From a plasmid, in sequence record NZ_CP010801.1: a DNA stretch of 64,000 nucleotides. One strand, 5' to 3'. Under the pieces are notes generated by a model. The model made no database searches. It was given only the letters and a program-made list of their open reading frames with translations, and was not told where the DNA came from. The translations under genes were made by a program, and so were the position numbers. Below, in pieces: positions 3,994 to 63,681 of this stretch; the stretch's first letter is position 1; each line of letters starts with the position of its first letter.

Positions 3994-4005
3994 TCTGCAG
4001 CACTA

Positions 4006-4040
4006 CACCCATCTCCTCACGAGGAGATGGGTTTTTCTTT
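4006..4040 (+). terminator. rho-independent terminator
   Basis: CACCCATCTCCTCACGAGGAGATGGGTTTTTCTTT. Confidence 0.7.
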
Positions 4041-4049
4041 GGTGGCAGC

Positions 4050-4083
4050 TGACAACCATACCTGAACGCCGGCATTCCGCCGG
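4050..4083 (+). promoter_or_regulatory. conserved upstream motif, instance b
   Basis: TGACAACCATACCTGAACGCCGGCATTCCGCCGG, 20 nt before ATG 4103. Confidence 0.7.
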
Positions 4084-4102
4084 ACACTCAGGAGCCAGAT
4101 CT

Positions 4103-5044
4103 ATGAGCAACACCATCGAAAATCTCTTCGGCATTCCCGGCGCGAGCGCCCCCATCCAGGTGCGTGAGCGCATTGACGGCATCCCGGCGCAGGCCTATCC
4201 GGCAGTATCCGCTGGGTATGTGTTCCAGCTGCTTCTTCTCAAGAAGCTGCTGCGCTTTCTGCTGGGCAACCCGGCTCGGCGCAACGCGATGCTCATCGGC
4301 GAACCGGGGGTCGGCAAGACTTCGATCGTCAATGAAATTGCCTCGCGCCTGAACATCCCCGTGTTCAGTCTGGCCTGTTCGGGCAAGACGCGGTTCTCTC
4401 ACATGGTCGGGGGTTACGAGATCGTGGGTGGCAACACACAGTGGCGCGATGGCCCGCTTGTCATGGCCATGCGCCATGGCGGTATCTTTCTGGCCAACGA
4501 AATCACTCGCCTGGACTCTGGTGAGCAGATGAACCTGGCCGAAGTTCTGGACAGTCGCGCTTCGATCACCATTCCGGACACGGGAGAGGTGGTGATGGCC
4601 GATCCGAATTTCCGCTTCATTGCCACCGGTAACTCCGGCGGCTATGGCGACGATTCGGGCGTGTACCAGGGCGAGCGCATCAGTTCGGTCGCGTTTCTGG
4701 ACCGCTTTCAGGTGTTCAAGGTCGGACACATGGATGCCACAGATGAGCAGGCCCTGCTGCAGAAGCTTGCGCCCAGTCTTCCGGTTGCGATTGTGGAAGG
4801 CATGGTCAAACTGGCCGGCGAGGTTCGCAAGAACTTCGTAGGTCGCGGCGGCACGCTGCGCGTGATCATGTCCACCCGTTCGCTTTGCGTCTGGGCCATG
4901 GAGACGGTCGGCTACAGCAAGATCAGCGGGATCGTCGATTCGGCACGTGAAGCGCTTCTGGATACCAGCCTGAACGGTGCGCCGGAAGATGAAGCCAGCG
5001 CGGTCCTCGAAATCTGGGATCGCTGGGTCAAGGAAGGGGCGTAA
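4103..5044 (+). CDS. AAA+ ATPase, MoxR/CbbQ/CobS-like (AAA_5 type)
   Basis: Walker A GEPGVGKTS, Walker B IFLANEITRLD and an arginine finger region. 313 aa. Upstream conserved motif and AGGAG RBS. Confidence 0.8.
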   Translation: MSNTIENLFGIPGASAPIQVRERIDGIPAQAYPAVSAGYVFQLLLLKKLLRFLLGNPARRNAMLIGEPGVGKTSIVNEIASRLNIPVFSLACSGKTRFSHMVGGYEIVGGNTQWRDGPLVMAMRHGGIFLANEITRLDSGEQMNLAEVLDSRASITIPDTGEVVMADPNFRFIATGNSGGYGDDSGVYQGERISSVAFLDRFQVFKVGHMDATDEQALLQKLAPSLPVAIVEGMVKLAGEVRKNFVGRGGTLRVIMSTRSLCVWAMETVGYSKISGIVDSAREALLDTSLNGAPEDEASAVLEIWDRWVKEGA

Positions 5045-5110
5045 GCCTGCACTGCTTCAAAAGGCCCACTCTGCTGTTCGCAGGGTGGGCTTTTTCTATT
5101 GCCGGATAGC

Positions 5111-5148
5111 AACAACCACTCTCGATTCATGGAGCGGCCGAAGGCCGC
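5111..5148 (+). promoter_or_regulatory. conserved upstream motif, variant instance c
   Basis: AACAACCACTCTCGATTCATGGAGCGGCCGAAGGCCGC (different hairpin, same box). Confidence 0.45.
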
Positions 5149-5186
5149 AATCATTCCAATCCCTGTGGGCAACCGGAGATCTTGTC

Positions 5187-5384
5187 ATGCACTTTCAAAT
5201 TCGAATCACTCGCGAAGGCTCAGGCCGCTTTCTAGTCATGTGCGGAGAGCGCCGCGCTGGGACCGTCCTCGGTGGCGGGGCGAACTGGAGCGCTGAGACG
5301 GCCGCCGGTAGCGCGCTCGGCCGCTTCTCCAGTAAGGCGCGCGCGATCGAAGCCCTCGTGGCACACGTCGCGCAAGGACGCTAG
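5187..5384 (+). CDS. small hypothetical protein (65 aa)
   Basis: MHFQIRITREGSGRF. Preceded by a terminator and a variant of the upstream motif (AACAACCA...GCGGCCGAAGGCCGC). Confidence 0.4.
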   Translation: MHFQIRITREGSGRFLVMCGERRAGTVLGGGANWSAETAAGSALGRFSSKARAIEALVAHVAQGR

Positions 5385-5441
5385 CATGCCAAAACACAAC
5401 CGGGCGCCTCCGTGAGGCCCCGGTTTTTCTTCGTCCATATC

Positions 5442-5477
5442 TGACAATTACTCCCTGAACCCCGGCGCATTGCCGGA
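5442..5477 (+). promoter_or_regulatory. conserved upstream motif, instance d
   Basis: TGACAATTACTCCCTGAACCCCGGCGCATTGCCGG. Confidence 0.6.
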
Positions 5478-5495
5478 ACTACAAGGAGTAGTGTC

Positions 5496-6470
5496 ATGAC
5501 GCAAGAAAGCATTCTCAAGAACGTTGTGGTTTTCGCCCCGGATCTGCGCGCGATCAGCGGTACGGTCTCCAAGGACACGGGCGCTGAGAATGGTCCGGCG
5601 TTCACGGGTGGCTCCGTTCGTTACATCGATCCCGAGACGCTGACCGGCCTGGGCACCATCCGCTCCCGTATGGCGCGCATCTGCCGCAGCATGGGCGTGC
5701 GTTTCTTGTCGGGCTGGGCGGTGCCGGAGGATGCCGCAGGCACACTTCAGGCGCTGCTGGCACCGACGGTTGAAGATGCTCGCCAAGCCATCTCTGCGTT
5801 CCTCGACAAGTTCGAGGAAAGCAAGGAGCAATGGCTCGACGATCACCCGGAGATCGGGCCCTACCAAGGCCGGTTCCCGACAATCGACGACGCGCGCGCT
5901 CGTATGGGCGTGTCGGTGGCAATCTACAAGATCGACAACAGCGTGGTAGCCAACGCGAATCCGGCAGAAGACGGCGTGTTGGTCGAGCTCGGCGTACTGC
6001 CGCGGCGCGCCCTGGAAGAAATCGCCCAGGACGTCCGCACTTCGTGGGATCCGTCCCGGGGCGTGGCCGGCAAAAAGACGCTGGGGATCGTTCACCGAAT
6101 CCGGGAGAAACTGCGCACGCTGGAATTCCTGGGCGGAAATCTGGGGCAAGCGGCCAGGCTCATCGAGGCGACTCTTCAACGGTTGCCTGATAGTGGCAAG
6201 ATCGAAGGCACGGACTACGCGATCCTCGCTGCGCTGATGGGTGCCCTGGAGCGGCCTGACTTCCTGGTCAGCATCTCCAGCAACCTACCCGACCAGATTG
6301 ACCCGGCCCTGCTGCTCGGGGTACGTCAAGCTCAGGCTCAAGTCGCTACGCTGGACCTGAACTGGCAAGCTGCCTTGCCTGAAGAAGCGCCGATTCAGGC
6401 GAACCAACCAGAGTCCACCGCAGTCGCCACGGTTCAAGTTGAGGAACCTGTGGAAGCCTGGTCCTGGTGA
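5496..6470 (+). CDS. conserved hypothetical protein (324 aa) sandwiched between the AAA+ and VWA genes
   Basis: Own upstream motif (5442-5477) and AAGGAG RBS. No recognisable catalytic motifs. Confidence 0.6.
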   Translation: MTQESILKNVVVFAPDLRAISGTVSKDTGAENGPAFTGGSVRYIDPETLTGLGTIRSRMARICRSMGVRFLSGWAVPEDAAGTLQALLAPTVEDARQAISAFLDKFEESKEQWLDDHPEIGPYQGRFPTIDDARARMGVSVAIYKIDNSVVANANPAEDGVLVELGVLPRRALEEIAQDVRTSWDPSRGVAGKKTLGIVHRIREKLRTLEFLGGNLGQAARLIEATLQRLPDSGKIEGTDYAILAALMGALERPDFLVSISSNLPDQIDPALLLGVRQAQAQVATLDLNWQAALPEEAPIQANQPESTAVATVQVEEPVEAWSW

Positions 6471-19432: not shown

Positions 19433-20408
19433 TCACGCCACCTGCGGTTCCCGCATGCGCAGCTTGTACTCACCCTGCCTGCGCATGCCTTCGGCAACAG
19501 AGAAGCGCGGATTCGCCGGCTTGACGACACGTTGCCAGCGCGACTGGATCGCCTCGACGACATAGTCGCTGCCCCCACCTGTGACGATGATTCCGTCGAG
19601 GCCACGCGCGTCGGCAGCAAACAGGGTGTCGGCTGTGTCCAGGATTTCCGAGATCATCGGGCCAAGCGCATCGTCGACTTCGCGATCGACGCCGACCATT
19701 TCGCCGAAGTTGCGCATCTTGCGTGTGCGCAGAATTTCCTCGCACTCCATGAGCGTGGAGGAGACGCCCGAAACGCTGAGCGCCTTGCGCAGTCGATCGG
19801 TGGCTCGGCTCACTCCGCTGCACGACGCGGTCTTGTCTTCGATCCACAAGCCATTGCGGAGCAAAGTGAAATCGGTGGTGTAGTAGCCGACCTCGATGAC
19901 TGCCCAGGACTCGCTCTCCAGGGCGTGAGCCGAGCGGAGAACGCCGCGCTCGTCGATCATGTGCAAGCTGAACGGGCCGAACGGCTGGGACATCACCATC
20001 ACTTCAGTGCCCAGAAGGCGGCTCGCGCGTTCGCGCAGTGCGTCGCGCTGGCGAGCGTAAAGGCCAGCCGGCAGGCCCAGAACGATCAACGCTTCCTCGT
20101 CCGCGCCAGATTCAATGGCCAGGCGCTGGCCGGCCAGAAGCAGTGCGTCGTGCTGAGATGTCTGCACCCAGTCCTCGAAAAGACCGGGTGTGGTGCGCAT
20201 GCCACCCTGGGCAATGGCAGTTTCGCCTACGAAGTAGGAGCGACCGCCGACCTGGACGGTTTCGCGCGCTGCGCGCTTGGCTGCGCCATCGTCGTAGATG
20301 GTGAAGGCCGGTACGACGGCCGTGGGAATCAGCGCCGTTTCGGGGAGAGCGCCGCGCGAGTACGCCAGTTTCACAGCAGAGTGGCCAACATCCAGACCGA
20401 TTGCCTTC
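19433..20408 (-). CDS. parM: ParM/StbA actin-like plasmid segregation ATPase
   Basis: Phosphate-1 motif IGLDVGHSAVKLAY and adenosine motif IIVTGGGSDYV. GTG start with GAGGA RBS. Iteron array upstream. Confidence 0.7.
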
Positions 20409-20469
20409 ACGTTTTCCTCACATAGAAAGATTCTGTAAAACATACTATTCCGCGCAACATATCGAAGTC

Positions 20470-20760
20470 AAGTAGTCGGCCGCTGGTCGCTGCTGATTGG
20501 CTGCTCGATGATGCTCTGTAGCTGCGCGCTGCCGCTGCTCATCCGCTGATCGCTGCCGGATAGCTGATATGGGCTGCTGTTTAGCTGCTCACTGCTGCCG
20601 GATAGCTGATGTTGGCTGCTGTTTAGCTGCTCACTGCTGCCGGATAGCTGATGCAGGCTGCTGCGTAGCTGTTCTCCGCTGCCCGATAGCTGCTAATCGT
20701 TGCCGAGTAGCTGCCCGACGCTGCTCATTAGCTGCTGGTCGCTGTCAGATAGCTGCGCGT
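20470..20760. repeat. parC-like centromere: ~10 tandem 18-bp TAGCTG(C)-containing iterons alternating two unit types
   Basis: TAGCTGCTCACTGCTGCCGGA / TAGCTGATGTTGGCTGCTGTT recurring with 18-bp period, upstream of and divergent from parM. Confidence 0.6.
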
Positions 20761-23305: not shown

Positions 23306-24145
23306 ATGATCTACACCGCCCCCCGTCTTTCGCAGATGACCAGAGTTGCCCGATCCCTTGCCTCGATCGCTCCAGCTGCTGCCTTGATCACGAATCCGGT
23401 CTTTGGCGCACAGGCCAACCCAGAACCAGGTGTCGATGCCGCGCAGGTCGCGCGGTCATTGCTATCGATTCCGCTCAACAAAGGGCTGTTCGATGTGGAG
23501 CACCAGGCGCATGTGCGTGCGATAGACGCCGAACGGCACATCCAGTTCGACGACCTGTACCTGTACGCGCCGCAGGGGGTGTACAAGCCGGGCCCGCGTA
23601 GTTCGACCCGGTTCTTCGTCGACCACTTCGCGGCGGCAGGCCTGGATCAGCCACGGTCCGGACAATCGTTGTGCGACGTGGGGTGCGGGACTGGCGCGAT
23701 CGGGCTCAGCGCGGCACGTCGAGGATGGCAGGTACTCGGTACGGACATTGATCCGAGCGCGGTCCGCGCGGCACGGCGAAATGCGCAGGCCAATGGCCTT
23801 GAAGCCCGATTCCGTGCGATGGGCGGGAGCCTGCTGACGCCGGCTGGCGATGAGCTCTTCGACGTGATCGTCTTCAATGAGCCGCTGTACGACGGTTCGG
23901 ATGGGGTGGTGCCGTTGTCGGCGGATGTTGCCGATCTGCACCAGATGTTCCTCGATCAGGCCCGCAAGCATCTGAAGCCAGGCGGGATGGTGCTGTTCGC
24001 GATTGCCAATTGCTCGTCGATGGCGGGCGACCTTGGCATCCCTGAACGATGTGGGTGGCAGGCGCCGCGCGTGATTGCCGCGGACTTCGACGCGCACACG
24101 CGCTACGCACGGGTACTGGTCGCCGCACGAGCATCGATGTCCTGA
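23306..24145 (+). CDS. class I SAM-dependent methyltransferase (small-domain/HemK-like, N(E)PL motif)
   Basis: LCDVGCGTGAIGL (motif I) and VIVFNEPLY (motif IV). Hydrophobic N-terminus. Confidence 0.7.
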   Translation: MIYTAPRLSQMTRVARSLASIAPAAALITNPVFGAQANPEPGVDAAQVARSLLSIPLNKGLFDVEHQAHVRAIDAERHIQFDDLYLYAPQGVYKPGPRSSTRFFVDHFAAAGLDQPRSGQSLCDVGCGTGAIGLSAARRGWQVLGTDIDPSAVRAARRNAQANGLEARFRAMGGSLLTPAGDELFDVIVFNEPLYDGSDGVVPLSADVADLHQMFLDQARKHLKPGGMVLFAIANCSSMAGDLGIPERCGWQAPRVIAADFDAHTRYARVLVAARASMS

Positions 24146-24195
24146 CGGACACCCTGAAGCACACCCTGGGTGGCAGCCTGACGGACACCCTGAAG

Positions 24196-24222
24196 CACAC
24201 CCTGACGGTAACCGTTTCCCGC
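24196..24222 (+). repeat. ori-like repeat copy A (GACACCCTG-N3-GGTAACCGTTTCC)
   Basis: Preceded by two tandem GACGGACACCCTGAAGCACACCCTG units (24141-24195). Confidence 0.5.
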
Positions 24223-24309
24223 ATTGTCCAGACTGGGTCCGCGCCCAAGGAAGTCAGGTCCAACCGCGATCGTTTGTTGATGGATAAGGCGGTGGAGGGA
24301 AGGATGGAC

Positions 24310-24639
24310 GCACGGATCGGTATCCTGAACGGCGGCAAGTTCTACGCTTTCGCCAACGGCTACCACACTGAACCGGTGATGGGCGCCCTCGAAGAGGTGG
24401 AGACCGCCTTGGGTCTGCGCCCAGTGGCCGCCAACCTTGCCAAGACGCGGGGTGCATACAAGCTGTTCAACGTCGTGCTTAGGTTCAAACACCCGGCCTG
24501 GGATGAAGTGAACGGCCTCGAATACCGAAACGTCTCCGCGCGCAGCAAGAGCGAGGCGAACAAGATCGCCCGCGATCGCGCATATGACGATGGGCACACG
24601 GTGGGCCGTCGCGCATGGTTCACTGCCACCGAAGCCTGA
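24310..24639 (+). CDS. hypothetical protein (~110 aa)
   Basis: GGAGGGAAGG RBS before MDARIGILNGG. Confidence 0.45.
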   Translation, partial: ARIGILNGGKFYAFANGYHTEPVMGALEEVETALGLRPVAANLAKTRGAYKLFNVVLRFKHPAWDEVNGLEYRNVSARSKSEANKIARDRAYDDGHTVGRRAWFTATEA

Positions 24640-24888
24640 AGACAACCCGGCCGCTACGCTTTTCCTGTTGCAACGAGCGTCGGGAGTGGGTGCGCCAGTG
24701 AAGAACGCCTGAGTCGCCCGCGCTGGCACTTGTCCGGGCGGTCGTCGCGCGGCTCAGCGCGGCTCGCGACCCCGAGCAGCGGGTCCCGCCACCAAGGCGG
24801 AACACTGCGGCGCCCCTGAATGGTCCACCCCTCTGCAAGCCGCTTTTCAGTGTGTTGACTGTGGGCCCGGCGAGTGTCGACACCTTGA

Positions 24889-24917
24889 CGGACACCCTGC
24901 TGGTAACCGTTTCCCGC
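24889..24917 (+). repeat. ori-like repeat copy B
   Basis: GACACCCTGCTGGTAACCGTTTCCCGC, extended similarity to copy A. Confidence 0.5.
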
Positions 24918-25310
24918 TAGAACGGACTTGGGCCGCACGCCTCTTCCGGTCGGCACCGGGAGGTGCCGACGGCTTGGTCAGCAAACGTTCAAGAGCATCG
25001 GGTGGCGGCGCGTGACGGTTCCTTCGAACACCACCCACGGCAAGTTGAGAACGGTATCCACGTCGAATGAGCCGCCGCCGTCGCGACTGGCGTACATGCC
25101 GATGATGCGCTCAGGCTGTGCACCCTCCGGTGCGCCAGGCGCAAAGTACATCGTGGCGTTCCACGCCAATCCCTCGGCCGTGATGCCATCGACCAACTGG
25201 CTGTCCATGCTGTCCCACTCCTCATTGGTTTGCAGACAGGCTGCAATATGCAGCCGCTTGTCGTCTTGCGATGAAAAGCAGGAGACATATTTTTACTTTG
25301 CCTAACCAAC

Positions 25311-25778
25311 TTGACAGACGCAACGCAAAAAACCAGAATCCAAGAATTACTAACGCGAGCAACGCCAGAAATTGGCGATATTCATGCCATGGGACAACGC
25401 AAAGTCAAAGACCTTGGGATTCTCGGCGAAAGGCAGCTGCGCCAGGTGAGTCTCACTGCGCGAGGCATGTACGCGGAGCTTGTGTACCTGATTTCCGGCA
25501 ATGACATGGGCAGCGAGTCGTTTGGCCGGATGCAGCTGGAGCCTGGCTGGATTTCCCGCCATGTTGGTGTCTCGGAGCAGGATGCGCAGCGGCTCCTGAG
25601 CGAGTTGCAAGAGGCCATGCTGATTCGGGTTGCGCGGGCTGGTGGCGGCTACGAGATCGAGGTGCCGGCGCTCATCCGAGCTCGAGATCTCTCGGTGAAG
25701 CGGGCGGCTGCAGGGCGCCGAGGCGGTAATCCTGCGCTACGCAAGGTTGTGACATACAGCGCTGAACTGGGGGCGTGA
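25311..25778 (+). CDS. hypothetical winged-helix-like protein; start uncertain (TTG overlapping a TTGACA box, or ATG ~25380)
   Basis: AT-rich promoter-like region at 25300-25380. Confidence 0.4.
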   Translation: MTDATQKTRIQELLTRATPEIGDIHAMGQRKVKDLGILGERQLRQVSLTARGMYAELVYLISGNDMGSESFGRMQLEPGWISRHVGVSEQDAQRLLSELQEAMLIRVARAGGGYEIEVPALIRARDLSVKRAAAGRRGGNPALRKVVTYSAELGA

Positions 25779-25789
25779 GGACTGGCGAC

Positions 25790-26302
25790 ATGGGAAAGAA
25801 AAGCAAATCCACCGAGAGTTCGCGTTGTCTGCCCTCCAGTCTGTGGGAGTGGCCGCAGGTGTGTGAGATGAGCGCGATGGGCAAGCTCGTCTACTTGTTC
25901 TTGGTCACAGGCACGATGTCTCGCAAGACTCCGCCGGGCATTGCGTGCGCTGGCATTGCGACGATCGCCGAGGCGGTGTCCGCAGATCGTGAGCAAGTCG
26001 TCGAGGCACTTGGCGAACTGGAGGATCTGGGCGTCATCGTGCGAGATCAGGCAACCCATGTGATTTGGCTGCCAGGCTGGATGGAAGCTGCCGAGCCGCC
26101 TGCCAATCCAAACGTTCTCATCCATCGGCTTCGCAGCGCGGACCAGATCCCGGAATGCGCTCTTCGGGACCGGTGGGTGCAGGAAATGCTGGAGCACGCG
26201 CAACGACGCGGAGCCGCTTTCGCGCGCGCGGCGGGCAAAGCCATTGACCCCGCGTTGTTGCCGCAGTCGGTGGCGGATGAGCTCGTCGGAGACTATGCAT
26301 GA
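25790..26302 (+). CDS. replication-organizer N-terminal-domain paralog (170 aa)
   Basis: Pattern LW..M.TG..S..PG...V.WLPGW....P.N.NVL.H...IPEC.LR shared with the N-terminus of the next protein. Confidence 0.5.
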   Translation: MGKKSKSTESSRCLPSSLWEWPQVCEMSAMGKLVYLFLVTGTMSRKTPPGIACAGIATIAEAVSADREQVVEALGELEDLGVIVRDQATHVIWLPGWMEAAEPPANPNVLIHRLRSADQIPECALRDRWVQEMLEHAQRRGAAFARAAGKAIDPALLPQSVADELVGDYA

Positions 26303-28044
26303 GAAAAGCAGCAGAGTCCGGCGGCTCGTTGCGGCCTGAAGGGCTTTATCGTCGCATCTATTGCCGGATGTGGAGCGACCAGCGGTTCACGGGGCTGTCG
26401 CGCGACGCGCAGCTGCTGTGGGTATTCATGCTCACGGGTCCGCACACGAGCAAGATCCCGGGCCTGTTTCGGCTCGGCAAGTCCACTGCGGCCGAAGAGA
26501 TGCGCATGGAGCTCGACGAGTTTGTGCAGACGTGGTCTGAAATCGAGTCGGCGGGCATGGCACGGGCGGACTGGGCGGCGCGCATGGTCTTCATCCCCCG
26601 CGCGGTCGTCTACAACCCGCCCGAGAGTCCTAGCGTGGTGATCTCATGGGGGCGAGCATTCCGCGACATCCCGGAATGCGATCTTCGCAATGTTGCACGG
26701 ACTCATCTGGCGCACTTCATCTGCCAACTTGGCAAGGGCTTTGCCGAAGCCTTCAAGACTGCATTCGACGATGAGCCGAACCGCTTGTTCATGGACCGCG
26801 ATCAGTCGATGACGAACCCTCCGAAGGCAGGGCGGGCCCCCTCGATGTCTGGGTCGGCCAAGGGGCCCAAAAAGCCGGCCGTTGAATCTGCGAGAAACGG
26901 TTACCAGCAGGGTGTCGGCCAGGGTGACTCACAGGGTGGTTTGCAGGGGGGGCTTCAAGGTGCCAATCAGGGGCAATCTTCAGCCCAGACAGCGGGCGGC
27001 GCAGATGCCTCCCACGGTGAAGGCGTGACGCGCGATCCTGTGGATGGCGACGATGCTGAGACCTCGAAAAATCAACGCTTCGGGGTTGATACTGGAAACG
27101 GTTACCCGCAGGGTGTCGGCCAGGGTGATAGGCAGGGTGACGGACATACCCCCCCTCATAAGCATAAGCAGGAGCATTTAGGTAAACCATCCCCTAAAGG
27201 GGATATGACGGACCTGCTTACGCAGGATCCTCCCTTCAAGCTGCCAGCGGCGCAGTCGTTGGATGGATCCGCCCCAACGCTTGAGACGCTCGGACCGATC
27301 CCCTGTCCCCACACGCAGATCATCGACCTGTACCACCGCATGTTGCCGCGTTTGCCAAGGGTGCTGCCCTCACGGTGGAGGGGGTCTGATTCGGAGACGC
27401 ATCTGACCGCCCGTTGGCGCGAAGGGTTGGAAGCCGGCAAGCGGGGCGTTGGCATTGAGGAGTTCGGCTTTGCGACGCGTGAGCAGGGGCTGGAGGCGCT
27501 CGAGCATTTCTTCGGTCTGGTTGCCGCAAGCCGCTTCCTGCATGGCGAAAACGACAAGAACTGGACGGCGGACTTGCGCTGGTTGCTGCGGCCGACCAAC
27601 TTCAACAAGGTCCTCGAGGGCCGATACACGGCTGGCTCGGACAAAGCCAGCGGCGCCGGTAAGGTGTCGCGGCTCGGCGTGCAGCCGGGCGATAGCTACA
27701 ACCGATTCGATCACTTCCCCGCTGCTCCGGGAGGAGGCCCGGAGGATCGCCGCGTGCTGCGCTTTGACGGCGGGCTGTACTTGCTTGGCGAGGACTGCGT
27801 GCTCCTTGACGCAATCGACGCGGATCTGGTCCAGCGCACGCTGGCCGAGCTTGAGCCCTATGGCCAAGTCGTGCAGGTGGGGATCGATCGATTGCCCGAG
27901 CGCGTGGCCAAGATGCGCACGGACAGGCAGCGCGGCTGGCTGCAGAGCCCGCCGATCCCACTGCGCCCAGAGGAACTGCCGGATTTCCCCCCGGTCGTCG
28001 CGGCCGCGCGGGCGGCCAATGACCGCAGCGTGACGGCGTTCTGA
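26299..28044 (+). CDS. putative replication initiator/replisome organizer (581 aa) with a low-complexity GQG linker containing ori-like repeats
   Basis: N-terminal domain paralogous to the previous gene. GQG-rich linker at 26880-27140 carries inverted repeat copies C/D. Followed by a DnaC-like loader gene. Confidence 0.5.
   Translation: MRKAAESGGSLRPEGLYRRIYCRMWSDQRFTGLSRDAQLLWVFMLTGPHTSKIPGLFRLGKSTAAEEMRMELDEFVQTWSEIESAGMARADWAARMVFIPRAVVYNPPESPSVVISWGRAFRDIPECDLRNVARTHLAHFICQLGKGFAEAFKTAFDDEPNRLFMDRDQSMTNPPKAGRAPSMSGSAKGPKKPAVESARNGYQQGVGQGDSQGGLQGGLQGANQGQSSAQTAGGADASHGEGVTRDPVDGDDAETSKNQRFGVDTGNGYPQGVGQGDRQGDGHTPPHKHKQEHLGKPSPKGDMTDLLTQDPPFKLPAAQSLDGSAPTLETLGPIPCPHTQIIDLYHRMLPRLPRVLPSRWRGSDSETHLTARWREGLEAGKRGVGIEEFGFATREQGLEALEHFFGLVAASRFLHGENDKNWTADLRWLLRPTNFNKVLEGRYTAGSDKASGAGKVSRLGVQPGDSYNRFDHFPAAPGGGPEDRRVLRFDGGLYLLGEDCVLLDAIDADLVQRTLAELEPYGQVVQVGIDRLPERVAKMRTDRQRGWLQSPPIPLRPEELPDFPPVVAAARAANDRSVTAF
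26890..26918 (-). repeat. ori-like repeat copy C (inverted, inside initiator CDS)
   Basis: GAGAAACGGTTACCAGCAGGGTGTC. The reverse complement matches copy B over 23 nt. Confidence 0.5.
27093..27121 (-). repeat. ori-like repeat copy D (inverted, inside initiator CDS)
   Basis: GGAAACGGTTACCCGCAGGGTGTC. Confidence 0.5.
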
Positions 28045-28061
28045 TCTCGAGGGAGGCGACC

Positions 28062-44094: not shown

Positions 44095-44304
44095 GTCCCG
44101 GGAAATCCGGGGGTTCCCAAGTAGTTGCTTTGGGCCGAGCGTAAAAAGCGGACGCGTCGATGCTGCTCAGGGCGGATGCCCAAAATTCAAGCAGCCCAGT
44201 CGAACCCGCCTGCGGCGCGGGTCTTGCTTCTCGTGGGGGCCACTTGTTCGCCAAAACTGTGGATAAATATTGTTCTTTTGTTGCGCGTGTTTATAATTCC
44301 GTGA

Positions 44305-45693
44305 ATGAACACATCGCGCGACTTCCAACTCGATGCATTGAAGGTTCCGCCGCATTCGGTGGAAGCCGAACAATCAGTTCTTGGCGGCCTGCTACTGGAC
44401 AACGCTGCCTGGGACCGCATTGCCGACTTCATCAATGAGCAGGACTTCTACCGGCACGACCACCGGCTGATCTTCCACAACATTGGACGGCTGATCGGGC
44501 AGGCCAAGCCGGCGGACGTCGTCACCGTCTTCGAGATGCTGCAGGCCGCAGGCAAGGCTGAGGATGTGGGCGGTCTGCCATATCTGAATGCGCTCGCTCA
44601 GAACACGCCCAGTGCGGCCAACATTCGCCGCTACGCCGAGATCGTGCGCGATCGCAGCGTCTTGCGCCGCTTGGTGACCGTGGCGGATGAGATCTCCGCC
44701 GGCGCCTTCAACCTGCAGGGGCGCGACGTGCGCCAGCTGCTGGACGAGGCCGAGACCAAGGTGTTCTCAATCGCCGAAGAGGGTTCGCGCGGGCAGAAGG
44801 GCTTCCTTGAGATCCAGCCATTGCTCACGCAGGTGGTCGAGCGAATTGACGATCTCTACCATCGCGACAGTCAGACCGACATCACGGGTGTCGCCACTGG
44901 CTTTGTCGATCTCGATCGGATGACCAGCGGCATGCAGCCGGGTGACCTCATCATCGTGGCCGGACGCCCATCCATGGGAAAAACCGCCCTGGCGCTCAAT
45001 ATCGGCGAGCACGTGGCGGTCGACCAAGGCCTGCCAGTTGCCGTGTTCTCGATGGAGATGGCGGGCACGCAGCTGGCCATGCGTATGCTGGGATCTGTCG
45101 GCCGGTTGGATCAGCACCGGCTGCGTACCGGCCGGCTGCGTGACGATGACTGGCCCCGCCTGACGCACGCCATCAGCAAAATGAGTGACGCTCAGCTGTT
45201 CATCGATGAGACCCCCGCGCTCAACCCAATGGAGTTGCGCGCGCGGGCCCGGCGCCTGGCGCGCCAGAGCGGCCAACTCGGCCTGATCATCATCGACTAC
45301 CTGCAGCTGATGTCGGGATCGTCTAATGGCGAGAACCGCGCAACTGAGATCTCGGAAATCTCCCGTTCCCTCAAGAGCCTGGCCAAGGAGCTCAACTGTC
45401 CAGTGATCGCCTTGTCGCAGCTGAACCGCAGCCTTGAGCAGCGGCCGAATAAGCGGCCGGTCATGTCGGATCTACGTGAGTCCGGGGCCATCGAGCAGGA
45501 CGCCGATGTCATCCTCTTCATCTACCGCGATCAGGTGTACAACCCGGACTCCCAGGACAAGGGCACCGCCGAAATCATCATCGGCAAACAGCGCAACGGC
45601 CCCATCGGCACCGTACGCCTCACGTTCCTGGGCGAACATACCAAGTTCGAGAACTTCGCAGGTCGGAACGCGTTCGAGGACGCGGAGTCCTGA
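44305..45693 (+). CDS. dnaB: replicative DNA helicase DnaB
   Basis: Walker A GRPSMGKT, Walker B IIIDYLQL, and the SQLNRSLEQR and ESGAIEQDAD motifs. TTGTTC-N16-TATAAT promoter upstream. Confidence 0.9.
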   Translation: MNTSRDFQLDALKVPPHSVEAEQSVLGGLLLDNAAWDRIADFINEQDFYRHDHRLIFHNIGRLIGQAKPADVVTVFEMLQAAGKAEDVGGLPYLNALAQNTPSAANIRRYAEIVRDRSVLRRLVTVADEISAGAFNLQGRDVRQLLDEAETKVFSIAEEGSRGQKGFLEIQPLLTQVVERIDDLYHRDSQTDITGVATGFVDLDRMTSGMQPGDLIIVAGRPSMGKTALALNIGEHVAVDQGLPVAVFSMEMAGTQLAMRMLGSVGRLDQHRLRTGRLRDDDWPRLTHAISKMSDAQLFIDETPALNPMELRARARRLARQSGQLGLIIIDYLQLMSGSSNGENRATEISEISRSLKSLAKELNCPVIALSQLNRSLEQRPNKRPVMSDLRESGAIEQDADVILFIYRDQVYNPDSQDKGTAEIIIGKQRNGPIGTVRLTFLGEHTKFENFAGRNAFEDAES

Positions 45694-50369: not shown

Positions 50370-50653
50370 ACCATTCAAGGGAGCCCGCCTGGGTTGCCAG
50401 GCGGTCGACACGACATGATCGCCAACCTCTCTCAGTCATCCAGCAAGGAATCCGCCATGGAAGAGCCTTCCACACAAACCTCCTCGTCGCCCATGCCAGA
50501 CGCGGAGCGAGCGCCCGAACTCGCAGGCTCCCCGGCTCAGTCCGCTGATGATTGGGAGAGCACGGCGAAATGGGCGACAACCACGCTCAAGACCATGCGT
50601 GAGCAGATTGAGGCCGATCTTCGCGCACTGGCAAGCCCTACGAGGGGTAGTCG

Positions 50654-50764
50654 TCCTTTCCGTGCAAAATCTGGCGGTTTAGGTGGGATTTCCCTTTCAG
50701 ATCAACGGCTTGGGAATTCAGCATTTTCCTGGGCGCTGTCCTTTTCGTGCGAAATCTGGCGGTT
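50654..50764. repeat. two 27-bp direct repeats TCCTTT(C/T)CGTGC(A/G)AAATCTGGCGGTTT 84 bp apart
   Basis: Seen directly in sequence. Confidence 0.6.
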
Positions 50765-50889
50765 TCCCTGCGTCGTGGCGACACGGCTCGGCGCTGCAGG
50801 TGCCATATTCACTGCGCAGTAAATAAGCCGGTTTCAGCGAAAGTTGGGCCACCGTCTCACTTCGGAGCGCCGGGCGGAGGCGGACATCA

Positions 50890-51882
50890 TCAGTTTGCCG
50901 CATCGGCCAGGCCGAGCCTCGCCCGATATTCAGTCAACAACACCTGCTGGGCTTCGAGTCGGGCGTTGCCCTTGGCCAACTCGCCGGCCAGGCGTTCGCG
51001 TTCGGCGCGTTCGGTGGCTAGTTCATCCGCCTGCTGTTGCGCCGCAGATCGCAGCGCATCTCGTTCCGCTTCGGTGCGCGCTTGATCGACGCGCGCTTGG
51101 TTCAGGTTGACGCGAGCCTGTTCTGCCTGCGTTTCCAATTCTCGGATGCGTTTGCCCGAGGCGGCAAGTTCCGCGACCAGCCGAGCGCTGTCCTTGTTCA
51201 GTTGCGTGATCTCCCCCTGCTTGATGATCAGCGTCTGATTGGCCTGTCGGGCTTCCGCCTGCAGTTGCTGGACCTGCTGCTCATGCCGGCGCGCATCCTG
51301 ATCGCGCTGTTCCCTGCTGGCATTGCGGAAGTGCTCCAGTGATTGATGAGCGTGCTGTAGCTTGTCCTCCAGCGAGCGCCGAAAACTTTCATGTTCTGCC
51401 AACCGGGTGCCGAGGTCCTGGACCTGCTGTGCCGAGCGTTCAGCCTCAATCGCGCGCTGCTGCAGCGCTGTCTGCGTGTCAGCGTGCGCGGCCCGCACGC
51501 TGGCGAGTGTGCTCTGCGCCTGTTCCAGTTCGGCGCGAAGTGCGACCACATCCGTGGCCAGCTTGTCGACTTCGGCACGAACGAGCTGGCGCTGGGCCGT
51601 GGCGGCCGCCGCCTGCTGATCGACCACCGCCTGCGCTTCTTCATGCAACCGCGCCGCCAATCTGCCCACCAGATCCAGGATGGCGTCGGAGGTCGAGCCA
51701 GCGCGGTTCAGCGCCGCGCCTTCCTCTTCTTCCAGCTCCTTGAGATAGCGATGGATCGTCGTTTTCGAGCCGGTGTTGCCCAGCGCGATACGTATTGCAT
51801 CGATGGACGGGTGGTGTCCCTGCGCCAGAAGTGAATCGCGGGCGCGTTTAACATCGAGGCGACTCAGTCCGGCCCGGGCCAT
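50890..51882 (-). CDS. kfrA: KfrA-like coiled-coil DNA-binding protein
   Basis: N-terminal MARAGLSRLDVKRARDSLLAQGHHPSIDAIRIALGNTGSKTTIHRYLKEL (KfrA_N) then a long Ala/Gln/Glu/Arg coiled coil. AGGAGCA RBS. Confidence 0.7.
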   Translation of the reverse strand: MARAGLSRLDVKRARDSLLAQGHHPSIDAIRIALGNTGSKTTIHRYLKELEEEEGAALNRAGSTSDAILDLVGRLAARLHEEAQAVVDQQAAAATAQRQLVRAEVDKLATDVVALRAELEQAQSTLASVRAAHADTQTALQQRAIEAERSAQQVQDLGTRLAEHESFRRSLEDKLQHAHQSLEHFRNASREQRDQDARRHEQQVQQLQAEARQANQTLIIKQGEITQLNKDSARLVAELAASGKRIRELETQAEQARVNLNQARVDQARTEAERDALRSAAQQQADELATERAERERLAGELAKGNARLEAQQVLLTEYRARLGLADAAN

Positions 51883-51906
51883 GGTGCTCCTACAATTTGA
51901 TACCGT

Positions 51907-51998
51907 ATTACGTACTATGTATATACGTACCAAATTGCGGCGTCAACGTGGATCGCTGGTTCTTGAATCTAATACGTGATAATGGCGGATTATCACGT
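51907..51998. promoter_or_regulatory. two palindromic operator-like sites in the kfrA promoter region
   Basis: TTACGTACTATGTATATACGTAC and perfect 10-bp inverted repeat ACGTGATAAT-GGCGG-ATTATCACGT. Confidence 0.45.
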
Positions 51999-52199
51999 GT
52001 GAGAGGTGTCATGGCGCCCTGGTGGTCCCCAATCCGGTACGAAACGCGCCGGATGTAGTGATGAAGGCCGCGTATTCTCGGTGCTGCCCAATTGCGGGAC
52101 GGGGCAGTTGGCCTACCGCGATTGCCGGTGCCTTCTGAAGCCACCCGGGGGTATTTGCATGCGCGAGCCGTATACAGGGCAACCACCAAGGAGATCAGC

Positions 52200-52488
52200 A
52201 ATGGCCGACCTCGACCAATGGCTCGCCGACGCAGCCAGGATCACCCATGAAGCACCGTCTGCGGTAAGTACCGCGCGCATCCAGCAACGGCTCGCAGCCG
52301 AGCCCGCGCCCGACGTGCTGGTCGCCCGCTATGATGCGCGGCGTGCCATGCTGTGCGCCGCCATCGCTGCGCTGGTGGCCTTCACGGTGATCGACCGCGT
52401 GGCGACCGCCGTCTTGAACAAGCCGGGCCCAACCTGGGTTGCCACACCGTCTGCCGCTTCTCCGTTTGGCCTGCTGATCGGTGAATGA
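52200..52488 (+). CDS. cnrY: CnrY/NccY-like membrane anti-sigma factor
   Basis: 95 aa with a C-terminal TM segment. Gene order YXH-CBA. Confidence 0.6.
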
Positions 52489-52931
52489 TGACGCCACGCA
52501 CCCGACGTCTTTCCCTCTCAACGCTAGCCGGCGCTCTGGTGGGGGTGGCCATTGCCGGCGCCGTCGTCTTCCTGTCGCACCCATCGCAGGAGCACCGGAC
52601 CGACCTGCACGAGATGCTCCACGAGGCGGTGCCGCTGGACGCCAACGAGCGTGAAATTCTCGACATGAAGGAACAGGCCTTCGCCCAACGCCGCCGGGAG
52701 ATCGAAACCCGGCTGCGCACGGCCAACGGTCAACTCGCTGACGCGATTGCCAAGAATCCCACGTGGTCGCCAGAGGTCGAGGCGGCCACCCAGGAAGTGG
52801 AACGCGCGGCTGCCGATTTGCAGCGGGCCACGCTGGTCCACGTTTTCGAGATGCGCGCGGGCCTGAAGCCCGAGCACCGGCCTGCTTATGACCGCGTGCT
52901 GGTTGATGCGCTTCGCCGTGGTTCGCAGTGA
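52485..52931 (+). CDS. cnrX: CnrX/NccX-like periplasmic metal sensor
   Basis: 148 aa, one TM segment plus His-containing helical domain ([16 protein letters not shown]). Confidence 0.7.
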
Positions 52932-53500
52932 CCAGTACGGAAGCGGACGGCGTGCTCGCCCGGCGCGCCGCTCGGGGAGATCACCATGCGTTTGGCATCC
53001 TGGTGCGGCGGCATAGCCCCGCCCTGGCGCAGGCTGGCCGCAGCTTTGGCATTCCGGAAACCGATATCGACGATGTCGTGCAGGACACCTTTGTTGCAGC
53101 TTGGCGCGCGCTGGGGGACTACGACGAGGCTCGACCGTTCCGTGCCTGGCTGTTCCACATCGGGCTCAACAAGATGCGTGACCTGCGCCGTTTCCGGCGC
53201 GTGCGGCACTTCCTGTTCGGCGCGGAGGATCTGACGGACCCCGAACGCCCTGCCTTGGCCGATCCAGACCCGGGCCCGGAGCGCCGTGCTTCTGCCCGGC
53301 GCGAATTGGCACGCGTCGTGGCTGTCCTGGACGGGCTCGATGCGAACTCGCGGGAAGCCATTGTTTTGACCGCCATCGTCGGCATGTCGCAGCCGGAGGC
53401 GGCTGCCGCACTTGGCATGACGCCGAAGGCCATTGAGGGGCGCATTGGCCGCGCCCGTGCCAAGCTGGCTGCCTTGATCGACGCCCGCAGCACCGAATAA
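52928..53500 (+). CDS. cnrH: ECF sigma factor (CnrH/NccH-like)
   Basis: Region 2 [14 protein letters not shown]...[12 protein letters not shown]. Region 4 [39 protein letters not shown]. Confidence 0.8.
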
Positions 53501-53590
53501 TTTCGACGGGCGCGAGGGGGTGCCGCGCTGGGCGCCGTATTGACCAATCTGTGCCGTCTTCGGCTTCTGCTTCCCTCAAGAAATCCGGCG

Positions 53591-54838
53591 ATGACCCGCG
53601 TGTCCTCTTTCCATACCCTCAGCGTGCTTGCCGCATCGCTGGCCTTGTCCGCCGCATCTGGTTGGGCGGCCGAGGCACCGCCCTTTACAGAATTGCTGCA
53701 GCAGTCGCTCGCCCACGCGCCCGCGATGCGCGTGCAGGCCGCCAACGTCTTGGCCGCTGGCGCCGATGCCGCCCAGGCGCGCGCGTGGCCCAACCCTCGT
53801 GCGGAGTCGGTGTTCGAGAATCTGGGGGCTCCGCAGAGCGATGGCGTGAGCCAGCGCCAGAACACCTTTTCCATCACACAGCCGATTGAGATCGGCGGCA
53901 AGCGTGGCGCACGCATCGAAGCCGGGCAGCGCGGCTTCGCCGCCGCACAAGCGCGCGAGCATCAAACGCAGATCGCGTACGCGGCTGAATTGGCGACCGC
54001 CTATGCGACGGCAGAGGCCATGCTGGCGCGAAAGTCCTTGGCTGCGGAAGACCTCGGGCGCGCGCGCGAGGAGCTTCGCGTGGCCCGCGCGCTAGTCCAA
54101 TCCGGCAAGGAAGCTGCGTTGCGCGTGTCCCAGGCGCAAGCCAGCGTCGCCGCCGCCACTGCGGCTGAACATGCGGCTGGCGCGGACGCGACGCAAGCGC
54201 TGGAGCAGTTGGCTGCCTTGGCCGGCTCTGACGAGCCCTACACCCGTCTGGCTGGCTCGCTTCTGTCCACATCGGCGGCACCTCCCGCCTCGTCGGGCGC
54301 GGCGGACGAAGCCCCCGCTGTCGTCACGGCGCAAGCCGAGCGAGACGTGATAAGCGCCCAGGTCGAGGTCGAGCGCAAGAAGTGGGTTCCCGAGGTTGGC
54401 GTCAGCGCAGGCGTGCGCCGCTACGGCTGGACGAATGCCAGTGGCTACGTCGTGGGCCTGTCGGCCACGATTCCACTGTTTGACCAGAACACGCACGCGG
54501 TGACCGCTGCGGTCGAGCGTGCCGCCGCCGCAGAAGCCAGGCTGGACACCGTGCGCCTGGAAGCATCTGCGGCAAAACGATCCGCCCAGGCTCAGGCTGC
54601 GGCTTCGGAAAAACGCCTCGCCGCAGCGGCGGAAGGCGAACGCGCAGCCGCCGAAGCCTATCGCCTGGGCCGTCTCGGCTACGACGCCGGCAAGACCCCG
54701 TTGATTGAACTGCTCGCCGTCCGGCGCGCGTTGTTTGAAGCAAGGCAACTCACGATTGACGCGCGCCTCGCGCGCGTACGCGCGTTGGCCGCACTGGCAC
54801 AGGCTGACGGCCGCCTGGCTTTTGAGGAAGCTCGATGA
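53591..54838 (+). CDS. cnrC: outer membrane efflux protein (CnrC/CzcC family)
   Basis: Signal peptide, two OEP repeats. Confidence 0.8.
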   Translation: MTRVSSFHTLSVLAASLALSAASGWAAEAPPFTELLQQSLAHAPAMRVQAANVLAAGADAAQARAWPNPRAESVFENLGAPQSDGVSQRQNTFSITQPIEIGGKRGARIEAGQRGFAAAQAREHQTQIAYAAELATAYATAEAMLARKSLAAEDLGRAREELRVARALVQSGKEAALRVSQAQASVAAATAAEHAAGADATQALEQLAALAGSDEPYTRLAGSLLSTSAAPPASSGAADEAPAVVTAQAERDVISAQVEVERKKWVPEVGVSAGVRRYGWTNASGYVVGLSATIPLFDQNTHAVTAAVERAAAAEARLDTVRLEASAAKRSAQAQAAASEKRLAAAAEGERAAAEAYRLGRLGYDAGKTPLIELLAVRRALFEARQLTIDARLARVRALAALAQADGRLAFEEAR

Positions 54839-56007
54839 TGAAAGACAACCTCCGCTCGGCCAACTGGCCGCTGATCGCCGGGATTGCCGGGGTGGCCGCC
54901 CTGGTGGGGTTCGGTGTGGCGCGCGGGCTTGTGCCCAGTCATTCTGCGGCGCCAGCGGCCAAGACAGCCGCCGCGCCCGAAAAAGCCGCCCCCACTGAGG
55001 TCAAGGTTCCCCTCGAATACCTGGCCACCGCCAACATCGCGGTCGAGCCGGTGGCCACGGCTGGCGTGGGCGCGGAGATCCTTGCGCCCGCCACGGTGGT
55101 CGCCGCGCCGGGCAGCGAGGCCGTGATCATTGCCCGCGCGTCGGGTGCTGTCCAGCGGATCAACCGCCGGCTTGGTGAGGTCGTGCGTGCGGGCGACGTG
55201 CTGGCCCTGGTGGACAGCCCGGAGGCGGCCGCGATGGCTGCAGAGCGCCGGGTGGCCGCCGCCAGGGCCGATTTGGCGCGCAAGACCTACGCACGAGAAG
55301 CCGCACTGTACGAGCAAGGCGTCACGCCGCGTCAGGAGATGGAAGCGGCCAAGGCCGCGCTCGAAGTCGCCAATGCCGAGGCGCAGCGCGCAGCGACCGT
55401 GGCGCAATCCGCGCATCTTGCCAGCGACGGTCGCTCGGTCGCGGTGACCAGCCCCATTGCCGGCAGGGTGACGGCGCAATCCGTCACGCTGGGCGCCTTC
55501 GTGCAGCCTCAGGCCGAACTGTTCCGGGTCGCAGGCAGCGGCACGGCACAGGTGGAGGCTTCGGTCACGGCCGCTGATACCGCCCGCGTGGCGGCCGGCG
55601 ACACTGCGGTGATCTTGCTGGGCAGCGGCTCGCCCGTGCCCGCCGTGGTGCACTCGGTGACGCCGACGGTGAACAGCAGCGCCCGCACCGCGACTGTGGT
55701 CCTGACGCCCACGCAAGCGCTGGACAAGCTGGTGATCGGCGAAGGCGTGCAGGTGCGCCTGCAAACGCGCACGAGCGGCCCCGCTGCCCTGTCGGTGCCG
55801 GAGGATGCCGTGCAGAACCTGGACGGGCGCGACGTGTTGTTCGTTCGCACGCCGCAGGGGTTCCGGCCCCAGCCAGTGCTGGTGGGCATCCGCAGTGGCG
55901 GGTCCGCCCAGATTCTCTCGGGTGCGCGCGCCGGTGAACAGGTGGCGACGCGCAACGCCTTCCTGCTCAAGGCCGAGATGAACAAAGGCGCCGGGGACGA
56001 CGAATGA
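54835..56007 (+). CDS. cnrB: membrane fusion protein (CnrB/CzcB, HlyD family)
   Basis: 390 aa, N-terminal TM segment and biotinyl-lipoyl-like hairpin domains. Confidence 0.8.
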   Translation: MMKDNLRSANWPLIAGIAGVAALVGFGVARGLVPSHSAAPAAKTAAAPEKAAPTEVKVPLEYLATANIAVEPVATAGVGAEILAPATVVAAPGSEAVIIARASGAVQRINRRLGEVVRAGDVLALVDSPEAAAMAAERRVAAARADLARKTYAREAALYEQGVTPRQEMEAAKAALEVANAEAQRAATVAQSAHLASDGRSVAVTSPIAGRVTAQSVTLGAFVQPQAELFRVAGSGTAQVEASVTAADTARVAAGDTAVILLGSGSPVPAVVHSVTPTVNSSARTATVVLTPTQALDKLVIGEGVQVRLQTRTSGPAALSVPEDAVQNLDGRDVLFVRTPQGFRPQPVLVGIRSGGSAQILSGARAGEQVATRNAFLLKAEMNKGAGDDE

Positions 56008-59000: not shown

Positions 59001-59240
59001 GAACGGGTGCGGCCTGTGCTGATGACGGCGCTGGTTGCCTCGCTCGGCTTCGTGCCGATGGCGATTGCGACGGGTACCGGCGCCGAGGTGCAGAAGCCGC
59101 TGGCGACGGTGGTGATCGGCGGCCTGGTCACCGCCACCGTCCTGACACTGTTCGTGCTACCCGCGCTCTGCGGGCTGGTGTTGCGGCGGCAGGCCCGCCG
59201 CGAGTCGGGTGACCAGGGGGTACTCGAAGCGCAGCCATAA
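56004..59240 (+). CDS. cnrA: heavy-metal RND efflux pump (CzcA/CnrA/NccA family)
   Basis: 1078 aa with 12 TM segments and two large periplasmic loops. Translationally coupled to the MFP gene. Confidence 0.9.
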   Translation: MIGSILNGAVRLRWLVLFLTAVVATVGAWQLNLLPIDVTPDITNKQVQINTVVPTLSPVEVEKRVTYPIETALSGLNGVESTRSFSRNGFSQVTVIFKESANLYFMRQQVSERLAQARPSLPEGAEPQMGPVSTGLGEVFHYSVEYAHPDGKGATIKDGLPGWQSDGSFLTDRGERLTDQVSKLAYLRTVQDWIVRPQLRTTPGVADVDSLGGYVKQYVVEPDAAKLAAYGISYAELARGLEDANLSVGANYIRRSGESYLVRADARIRSVDEISRAVIAQRQNVPITVGQVAVVKVGGELRSGAASRNGYETVVGSALMLVGANSRTVAQAVGDKLKQIEKTMPPGVVIVPTLDRSQLVVATIETVAKNLTEGALLVVVILFLLLGNVRAATIAALVIPLSLLISAIGMNALGISGNLMSLGALDFGLIIDGAVIIVENTLRRLAERQHREGRLLTLRERLDEVVLSSREMVRPTVYGQLVIFLVFLPCLTFQGVEGKMFSPMVITLMLALASAFVLSLTFVPAMIAVLMRKQVAEKEVRVIAATKQRYRPWLQAAVRRPLPFLGAGALTLALAAVAFAFVGREFMPTLDEQNLNLSSVRIPSTSIDQSVAIDLPLERAVMTLPEVKTVYSKAGTASLAADPMPPNASDNYIILKPKDEWPAGVTTKEQVIERIRQKTAAMVGNNYDVTQPIEMRFNELIGGVRSDVAVKIYGEDLDELAATAQRVAAVLRKTPGAADVRVPLTGGFPTFDIVFDRAAIARYGLTVKEVADTLSTALAGKAAGQVFDGDRRFDIVVRLAREQRDNLDVLGALPVMLPQADGQPRASVPLRQLVQFRFTQGLNEVSRDNGKRRIYVEANVGERDLGSFVDDAAKRIANEVKLPTGSWIEWGGQFQNLQAATKRLAIIVPACFILIAATLYLAIGSAMLTATVLTAVPLALAGGVFALLLRGMPFSISAAVGFIAVSGVAVLNGLVLISAIRKRLKDGMAPDAAVVEGAMERVRPVLMTALVASLGFVPMAIATGTGAEVQKPLATVVIGGLVTATVLTLFVLPALCGLVLRRQARRESGDQGVLEAQP

Positions 59241-59313
59241 CGGGGGGCAGCCGTATTGATGTAGCGATCTCTACATCATTGCAGCGTCGCATACGGCAAT
59301 CTAAGCTGCCGTC

Positions 59314-60279: not shown

Positions 60280-60294
60280 CTTCACTGCACAACC

Positions 60295-61503: not shown

Positions 61504-61519
61504 ATCGGGCGAGACGACC

Positions 61520-62110: not shown

Positions 62111-62146
62111 TGCCTTTCCATCAACTAATCGCAGCGGAGGTTGTCA

Positions 62147-62607: not shown

Positions 62608-62627
62608 ACCGGCCAAGGAGACGAGCG

Positions 62628-63242: not shown

Positions 63243-63260
63243 TACAGAGAGGAGAAAGAA

Positions 63261-63665: not shown

Positions 63666-63681
63666 CGTATCGGAGCCCACC

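Follow-up and report, generated by a model that had tools for sequence, protein, structure and literature searches.

A candidate phage-type replication origin within the initiator gene of a Ralstonia conjugative element

The plasmid sequence record NZ_CP010801.1 includes part of a widespread Ralstonia conjugative element, and a stretch of 64,000 nucleotides (nt) from this record, referred to here as the window, was analysed. In the window, the gene of a putative replication initiator of 581 amino acids (aa) carries two arrays of 12-bp repeat units, arrays C and D, in the region that encodes the linker between its two main domains. Array D is followed by a lower-GC hexamer tract. We propose, with a probability of about 0.65, that a phage-type theta replicon has its origin within its own initiator gene, formed by arrays C and D together with the hexamer tract. 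Two additional arrays, A and B, have the orientation opposite to that of the initiator gene and are found 2.0-2.7 kb upstream of the in-gene arrays. Initiator genes that contain an origin are already known. What is new is the set of capped 12-bp tandem arrays, two in the gene and two extragenic and inverted, together with a paralog of the initiator. Also new is a family-wide signature of an array plus (CAGGAR)n in a family of initiators for which curated models are lacking, and no description of it was found in the papers searched. The arrays, the tract and the initiator gene are the following.

24136-24222, minus strand: array A, intergenic, with its first unit overlapping the methyltransferase stop codon; about six units, NNCACCCTGNNN on the plus strand, ending in the cap GTAACCGTTTCC
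24879-24917, minus strand: array B, in the convergent gap between the genes at 24304-24639 (plus strand) and 24978-25208 (minus strand); two units and a cap
26890-26975, plus strand: array C, in the initiator linker; a cap and four to six units (CAGGGTG three times, the rest degenerate)
27093-27143, plus strand: array D, in the initiator linker, 201 bp past array C; a cap and three CAGGGTG units
27150-27209, plus strand: degenerate hexamer tract CATAAG CATAAG CAGGAG CAT with a low-GC patch, directly after array D
26299-28044, plus strand: initiator gene, 581 aa; winged-helix N-domain at residues ~17-160, linker with arrays C and D, YdaU/DUF1376/O-like region at ~335-445, and a C-terminal extension

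The arrays are united by the motif ACACCCTG-N2-GGTAACCGTTTC (equivalent to ACACCCTGNNGGTAACCGTTTC), which specifies 20 bases and has four exact matches, with 0 mismatches, in the window. These are located at 24197-24218 (+), 24892-24913 (+), 26894-26915 (-) and 27095-27116 (-). The number of matches expected by chance in the window is 0.01, and 0 of 100 shuffles reached four. The 12-mer GGTAACCGTTTC alone is confined to the same four places in the 64 kb. A preliminary description of this DNA had reported a ~25-bp element present four times, with two direct copies upstream and two inverted copies in the initiator linker. The number of copies and their orientation agree with the exact matches (strands + + - -), but the three-base spacer that was given returns 0 matches and a spacer of two bases is correct.

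When read in the coding orientation of the initiator, every copy begins with the cap GAAACGGTTACC and continues with tandem 12-bp units that have the core CAGGGTG. The tandem units already noticed in the first copy, array A, have a period of 12 bp and are repeated 5.4 times at 24141-24205. The reported match of the third copy to the second over 23 nt is also accurate, as arrays B and C contain the identical 23-mer GACACCCTGCTGGTAACCGTTTC. Over a 39-nt core, the four arrays are identical at 29-34 of the 39 positions, and their 60-nt flanks have 22-38% identity, which is the random level. Because the similarity stops at the edges of the arrays, the arrays are discrete elements and not remnants of a larger segmental duplication. 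In the initiator, array C encodes the peptide NGYQQGVGQGDSQGGLQGGLQGANQG (also given as NGYQQGVGQGDSQGGLQG...), and array D encodes GNGYPQGVGQGDRQGDG. Elsewhere in the window, the unit that comes first in arrays C and D, CAGGGTGTCGGC, has a lone exact copy at 19622-19633 inside the ParM-like gene. This copy has a chance expectation of ~0.008 and has neither a cap nor adjacent units; it may be a coincidence or a stray putative binding site.

The preliminary description had also held that the repeats are sites in the DNA and not a by-product of a peptide, and several observations agree. No gene is called over the interval of array A or of array B in five public assemblies. The minus-strand open reading frames that cross the two arrays match nothing in PHROGs, and the GC3>GC2 pattern typical of real genes there is absent from them. 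Arrays A and B are non-coding, and thus the array sequence is kept as DNA. Within the initiator linker, the Gly codon of the QG dipeptides is GGT in seven of nine cases, compared to a background of 15.6% (P 6e-5), and QG dipeptides elsewhere in the element are encoded by CAGGGT in 4 of 36 cases. Constraint on synonymous sites and a switch of reading frame, both seen across the initiator family and described below, point in the same direction.

The hexamer tract after array D coincides with a change in composition. Positions 27160-27209 form the only patch of <=45% GC within the initiator gene and, the promoter region aside, the only such patch in 23.9-28.3 kb. The patch is short and is a degenerate version of the (CAGGAR)n tract of the family. 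We infer that 27150-27209 is the counterpart of the family tract and a candidate unwinding or loading element. No Rfam matches were found in 20-30 kb.

The N-domain of the initiator belongs to a large family without a Pfam or NCBIfam model. The family comprises 5,099 representative clusters, with 372 hits in viral contigs, and it occurs in 3 of 50,697 deposited phage genomes. Related viral and metagenomic loci with the tract described below include L023-L102 and L009-L022, and comparative counts were made on 89 non-redundant loci of 45-72% GC. A (CAGGAR)n tract of 3-11 hexamers lies just after the N-domain in 80 of the 89 loci and is preceded by a 12-bp array. This tract hardly varies at the DNA level and is read as QEQEQE in 73 loci and, one frame over, as SGTGTG in six. 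Within it, Gln is encoded by CAG in 423 of 428 codons, compared to 421 of 625 elsewhere. Glu is encoded by GAA in 72% of cases, compared to 43% elsewhere, a shift that is opposite in GC direction to that of the Gln codons. Of 80 loci, 64 have 12 and 15 have 24 as the best-fitting period in the 108 nt ahead of the tract. The family consensus of the unit, GCTTTCGGAAAG, is a CTTTC/GAAAG dyad, and other lineages have the dyad cores GACACGGTGTC, AACGTT, CACSGTG and TTCCGGAA. The codons of the arrays are also biased: Lys is AAG in 95% of cases versus 65% elsewhere, Ala is GCT in 63% versus 17% elsewhere (p 7e-62), and Pro is CCT in 75% versus 15% elsewhere (p 4e-70), p-values that overstate independence because the loci are phylogenetically related and 12-bp and 6-bp tandem repeats are homogenised by slippage, which weakens the case for an origin to that extent. 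These effects leave the frame switch and the dyads untouched. A lambda-style origin within the gene is well supported because the CAG constraint of the tract, its reading in two frames and the biased codons of the arrays show constraint on the DNA.

The cap may preserve an older form of the repeat. In our own comparison, 9 of 12 positions of the cap GAAACGGTTACC agree with the common family unit GAAAGGCTTTCC, and for this reason the cap looks like the ancestral iteron type; the CAGGGTG units resemble a lineage-specific addition. The only distant full-length homolog found, P0002/L007 (40% identity), also has two 12-bp linker arrays ~200 bp apart. Its units have another sequence (AACGGTT/AACCCTT), and (CAGRAA)n directly follows its second array. 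Family members are found at the position of O, after cII and before 'replication protein P', in the lambdoid Citrobacter phage Chris1 and in the E. coli plasmid p727A3-47K, which supports the initial view of a phage-type initiator with its loader encoded downstream. A literature search for the hexamer tract or the QEQEQE motif in a replication context gave nothing relevant among the searchable papers.

Two relatives vary in other ways. In the viral locus L017, a 12-bp array of five TTRCCGGAAGGG units at 4943-5026, encoding LPEG peptide repeats, is located inside the N-terminal domain rather than after it. In the metagenomic locus L022 (1196-3775), the initiator gene is followed by a DnaB gene with an intein and a LAGLIDADG endonuclease, in place of a DnaC-like loader.

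The initiator itself is annotated as 'MULTISPECIES: hypothetical protein [Ralstonia]', and the protein is found unchanged on contigs of 77-190 kb. It has no Pfam match (E<=0.01) and no NCBIfam match. The Pfam comparison, which also covered six relatives, gave no family at E<=0.01, including RepA_N (PF06970). In PHROGs, residues 17-157 match phrog_25711 and phrog_1701 ('DnaD-like helicase loader'), and residues 279-445 match 'replication initiation O-like' (phrog_345) and related families, including PHROG 5810. Residues ~335-443 have 36-41% identity by tblastn to proteins annotated as YdaU/DUF1376, without a Pfam DUF1376 match at E<=0.01. The best Foldseek matches of the N-domain are 4pql, 5kbj, 4pt7 and 4pta, which are RepA_N-type, DnaD-like winged-helix structures. 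The C-terminal extension is conserved in P0002 and in P0017, another distant relative.

The surrounding genes and the control region are listed below; the layout of the genes from 23306 to 28883 is taken from public gene calls on five assemblies.

23306-24145: methyltransferase gene (public gene call)
24304-24639, plus strand: phrog_13774 gene (public gene call)
24978-25208, minus strand: gene (public gene call)
25260-25409: divergent control region, the most AT-rich stretch of the locus
25311-25778, plus strand: first operon gene, 129-155 aa, with a weak winged-helix signal
25790-26302, plus strand: N-domain-only paralog, 170 aa; the gene overlaps the initiator start codon
28062-28883, plus strand: DnaC/IstB-type AAA+ helicase loader gene, immediately downstream of the initiator gene
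44305-45693, plus strand: element-encoded DnaB-type replicative helicase, 16 kb from the loader

The control region contains a sigma-70-like promoter, TTGACA-17-CAGAAT, at 25311-25339, the sole one found in 23.9-26.4 kb. The 155-aa protein encoded by the first gene has no detectable relation to the initiator. The 170-aa protein has 27% identity to the N-terminus of the initiator over 142 aa (E 6e-16), in keeping with the paralogy that was recognised at the outset. In P0017 (828 aa), two N-domains are fused ahead of the same C-terminal domains, so the paralog appears to be functionally tied to the initiator and is a candidate competitor or regulator of it. The DnaC-like loader, which had likewise been predicted, matches PF01695 (IstB_IS21) with 59.6 bits against a cut-off of 24.1 and phrog_50, 'DnaC-like helicase loader', with an E of 1.5e-45. 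The DnaB at 44305-45693 is a possible client of this loader. A perfect DnaA box, TTATCCACA, is present on the minus strand at 44258-44266, ~40 nt upstream of the DnaB gene; the count of such boxes in the window is at chance level.

The locus is most similar in layout to the origin of phage lambda. In lambda, four iterons and a purine-rich AT tract are found in the middle of gene O, and in Stx phages additional iterons make the O protein longer (PMC7466680). As in lambda, the putative origin occupies the central part of the gene, where the linker joins the DNA-binding N-domain to a C-domain that would recruit the loader, the number of repeats alters the length of the linker, and the loader gene follows directly. 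The repeat array also precedes, in the coding direction, a lower-GC, purine-rich tract that may be the counterpart of lambda's (PMC7466680). The mirrored layout noted in the preliminary description is accurate in this respect. Its term 'lambda-O-like' fits the function, the position and the C-terminal part of the initiator, which matches the PHROG 'replication initiation O-like' (phrog_345), but does not extend to the DNA-binding N-domain. The family profile of this domain aligns to lambda O with an hhalign probability of 0.07%, and there is no match to Pfam Phage_rep_O at E<=0.01. Other differences concern the DNA and its carrier. Lambda iterons are ~18-19 bp long at a spacing of 20-24 bp, whereas the units of the window are 12 bp and strictly tandem. 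The window has two in-gene arrays 201 bp apart and two extragenic inverted arrays, its loader is of the DnaC/IstB type and not lambda P, the tract of the family is (CAGGAR)n where lambda has an A/T run, and the host of the replicon is a large conjugative element rather than a phage.

Other systems share parts of this arrangement. RepA_N initiators bind semi-palindromic iterons and have a C-terminal domain that is variable and host-specific (PMC7145576). By Foldseek, the N-domain of the window initiator appears to fall into the same winged-helix, DnaD-like fold class as the RepA_N proteins of pSK41 and pTZ2162 and the PLE RepA of Vibrio cholerae. It differs from them in the lack of a Pfam RepA_N match, in its other C-terminal domain and in its DnaC-like partner. 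Furthermore, RepA_N iterons converge on a poly-A tract, and none was seen here. Weaver et al. 2009 are said to have placed the origin of many RepA_N plasmids within repA. The YdaU/DUF1376 and YdaV (DnaC-like) pairs of Rac-type prophages have in common with the window the aligned C-terminal region and the adjacent DnaC-like gene; here, however, the domain is C-terminal to another DNA-binding domain and to a linker that bears repeats. In iteron plasmids, extra iteron arrays control copy number, as seen with P1 incA, F incC and handcuffing. Extra origin-type arrays outside the putative origin are also present in this replicon, since arrays A and B are intergenic and have the same cap-plus-unit build. 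They are a few kb away from the proposed minimal origin, and the element is low-copy and encodes a partition system of its own. In contrast to iteron plasmids, the putative origin arrays are contained in rep itself, the extra arrays have the opposite orientation and the same cap, and there is no operator that overlaps a promoter.

A mechanism for initiation can be outlined from the domains and the layout. The winged-helix N-domain of the initiator would bind the cap and the 12-bp units of array D, and those of array C, and build an oligomeric complex. The adjacent tract at 27150-27209 would then open. The YdaU/O-like C-terminal part would recruit the DnaC-like loader that is encoded next door, and the loader would place a DnaB helicase, which may be that of the host or the element's own. 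Arrays A and B may bind the same protein and serve in control rather than in initiation, either by titration or by pairing or looping with arrays C and D (handcuffing), with the N-domain-only paralog as a possible competitor. We consider the chances of such a control role for A and B to be about even. The second in-gene array, like the extragenic ones, is peculiar to the Ralstonia lineage, and these arrays may have a role in copy control. A broader and more tentative suggestion is that the genes of a large family, common in prophages and viral contigs, embed a two-part origin, composed of a lineage-variable 12-bp dyad array and a (CAGGAR)n tract that is kept as DNA across reading frames. In the Ralstonia lineage, the iteron module would have been duplicated within the gene and copied to two inverted sites outside it, beside the N-domain-only paralog, giving a phage-type replicon plasmid-style control and stable low-copy maintenance on a conjugative element.

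Several observations weigh against an origin at arrays C and D or against the control role of arrays A and B. The CAGGGTG unit has no clear dyad, and a 12-bp spacing is off the helical repeat. The hexamer tract of the window contains a single perfect CAGGAG, there is no DnaA box near the arrays, and GC skew has no switch at the locus. None of the repeat units is located in the control region at 25260-25409 or overlaps the promoter-like site. No extragenic arrays were found in the 89 other loci, where only single k-mers or GC-rich low complexity were seen, so comparison with relatives lends no support to the role proposed for A and B. The conservation of A and B also cannot be separated from recent common descent because all of the public copies of the element, of which there are at least 27, are >=99.9% identical. 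The copies examined in the comparative set (L002-L006, L021) are uninformative on conservation for the same reason, as they are >=99.9% identical over 21.7 kb.

Three other explanations were considered, and each was scored below an origin at arrays C and D. The repeats could be a slippage-prone, low-complexity QGxx linker with no function in the DNA, in which case arrays A and B would be decaying relics of an old inverted duplication of the linker. The 12-nt period is a multiple of three and slippage expands tandem arrays; A and B could be young and neutral given the near-identical copies of the element, and other family members have no extragenic arrays. Against decay, A and B keep the full cap-plus-array build and 20 of 20 specified bases, with flanks at random identity. 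Also against this explanation are the seven GGT codons of nine over the 15.6% background, the reading of the same DNA in different frames across the family, and synonymous constraint that runs in opposite GC directions (CAG but GAA, and GCT and CCT in GC-rich genomes), and the unit cores are dyads, which are sensible only for DNA. This explanation is improbable. We hold it no more likely that the roles are reversed, with A and B as the origin and the in-gene arrays C and D as a control or incompatibility locus. In classical iteron plasmids, the iterons are indeed non-coding and lie close to an AT-rich region next to rep, the AT content of this locus is highest at 25260-25409, and the element has plasmid-like partition genes (a ParM-like gene with upstream repeats). 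But the AT-rich region holds the operon promoter, DnaA boxes are absent, and in ~90 relatives the arrays are only in-gene, beside the hexamer tract, because of which the in-gene site is taken as the ancestral position of the origin.

The arrays could also be sites for another protein, with the paralog or the 155-aa protein as a regulator, or with a recombinase that inverts the 2.7-kb segment. The inverted copies flank the operon control region, genes for two more winged-helix-like proteins lie between the arrays, and the two motif types, the cap and the CAGGGTG units, could serve two proteins. On the other hand, no recombinase gene was found in or beside the segment, and all of the public copies are collinear with no inverted isoform. 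Relatives without the paralog gene still have in-gene arrays, and no unit overlaps the promoter-like site, so that a binding site for another protein is unlikely as well, if very slightly less so than the two preceding explanations.

If arrays C and D and the adjacent tract are the origin, a single module of ~3.7 kb would hold what a widespread conjugative element of Ralstonia needs to start replication; the module is clonable and a possible vector replicon or incompatibility marker. The element, with its metal-resistance cargo, occurs in many assemblies and metagenomes. The signature of an N-domain, a 12-bp array and (CAGGAR)n, in this order, could be used to find the origins of numerous prophages and viral contigs that lack a curated initiator model. 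The paired variants of N-domain and iteron form a natural series for studying the evolution of specificity. Moreover, the extragenic inverted arrays and the paralog suggest a route by which a phage replicon could be adapted to plasmid-like copy control, an idea that is testable.

The element may be either a conjugative plasmid or an integrative element. In the window, it also encodes a T4 coupling protein, topoisomerase III, a ParM/ALP-like ATPase, DnaB, KfrA and a lytic transglycosylase, as well as metal-resistance cargo of the cnr/czc and chr types. No other replication initiator was detected in the 64-kb window, so the earlier suggestion that this would be a second replicon is tentative. 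Megablast of 23.0-29.5 kb and of 10-23 kb against phage and plasmid collections returned no related record, and in a scan of genome contigs only a 307-bp contig matched. Approximately 10 copies of a 21-bp unit (42-bp super-unit GCTGCCGGATAGCTGATNNNGGCTGCTGTTTAGCTGCTCACT) are found at 20552-20756, directly upstream of the ParM/ALP_N-like gene at 19433-20443 (minus strand); the probable role of this array is that of a parC-type centromere for actin-like partition.

An IS21-family istA/istB pair occupies 72-2370 on the minus strand, at the left end of the window. Toward the right end, from ~50600 to 64000, GC climbs from ~0.60 to 0.65-0.71, and, from KfrA onward, the sequence matches a 336-kb plasmid of Ralstonia pickettii with 100% identity. 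The cargo at this end consists of cnr/czc-type RND efflux, chrBAC and SOD genes. It is a shared module because the same genes are found in hundreds of unrelated contigs. In the assembly of Ralstonia sp. GP101 (L021), frameshifts split both the initiator and the methyltransferase gene (4001-5735 and 1009-1847), with 99.9% identity in the rest of the DNA, and these splits are probably assembly errors, not real variants.

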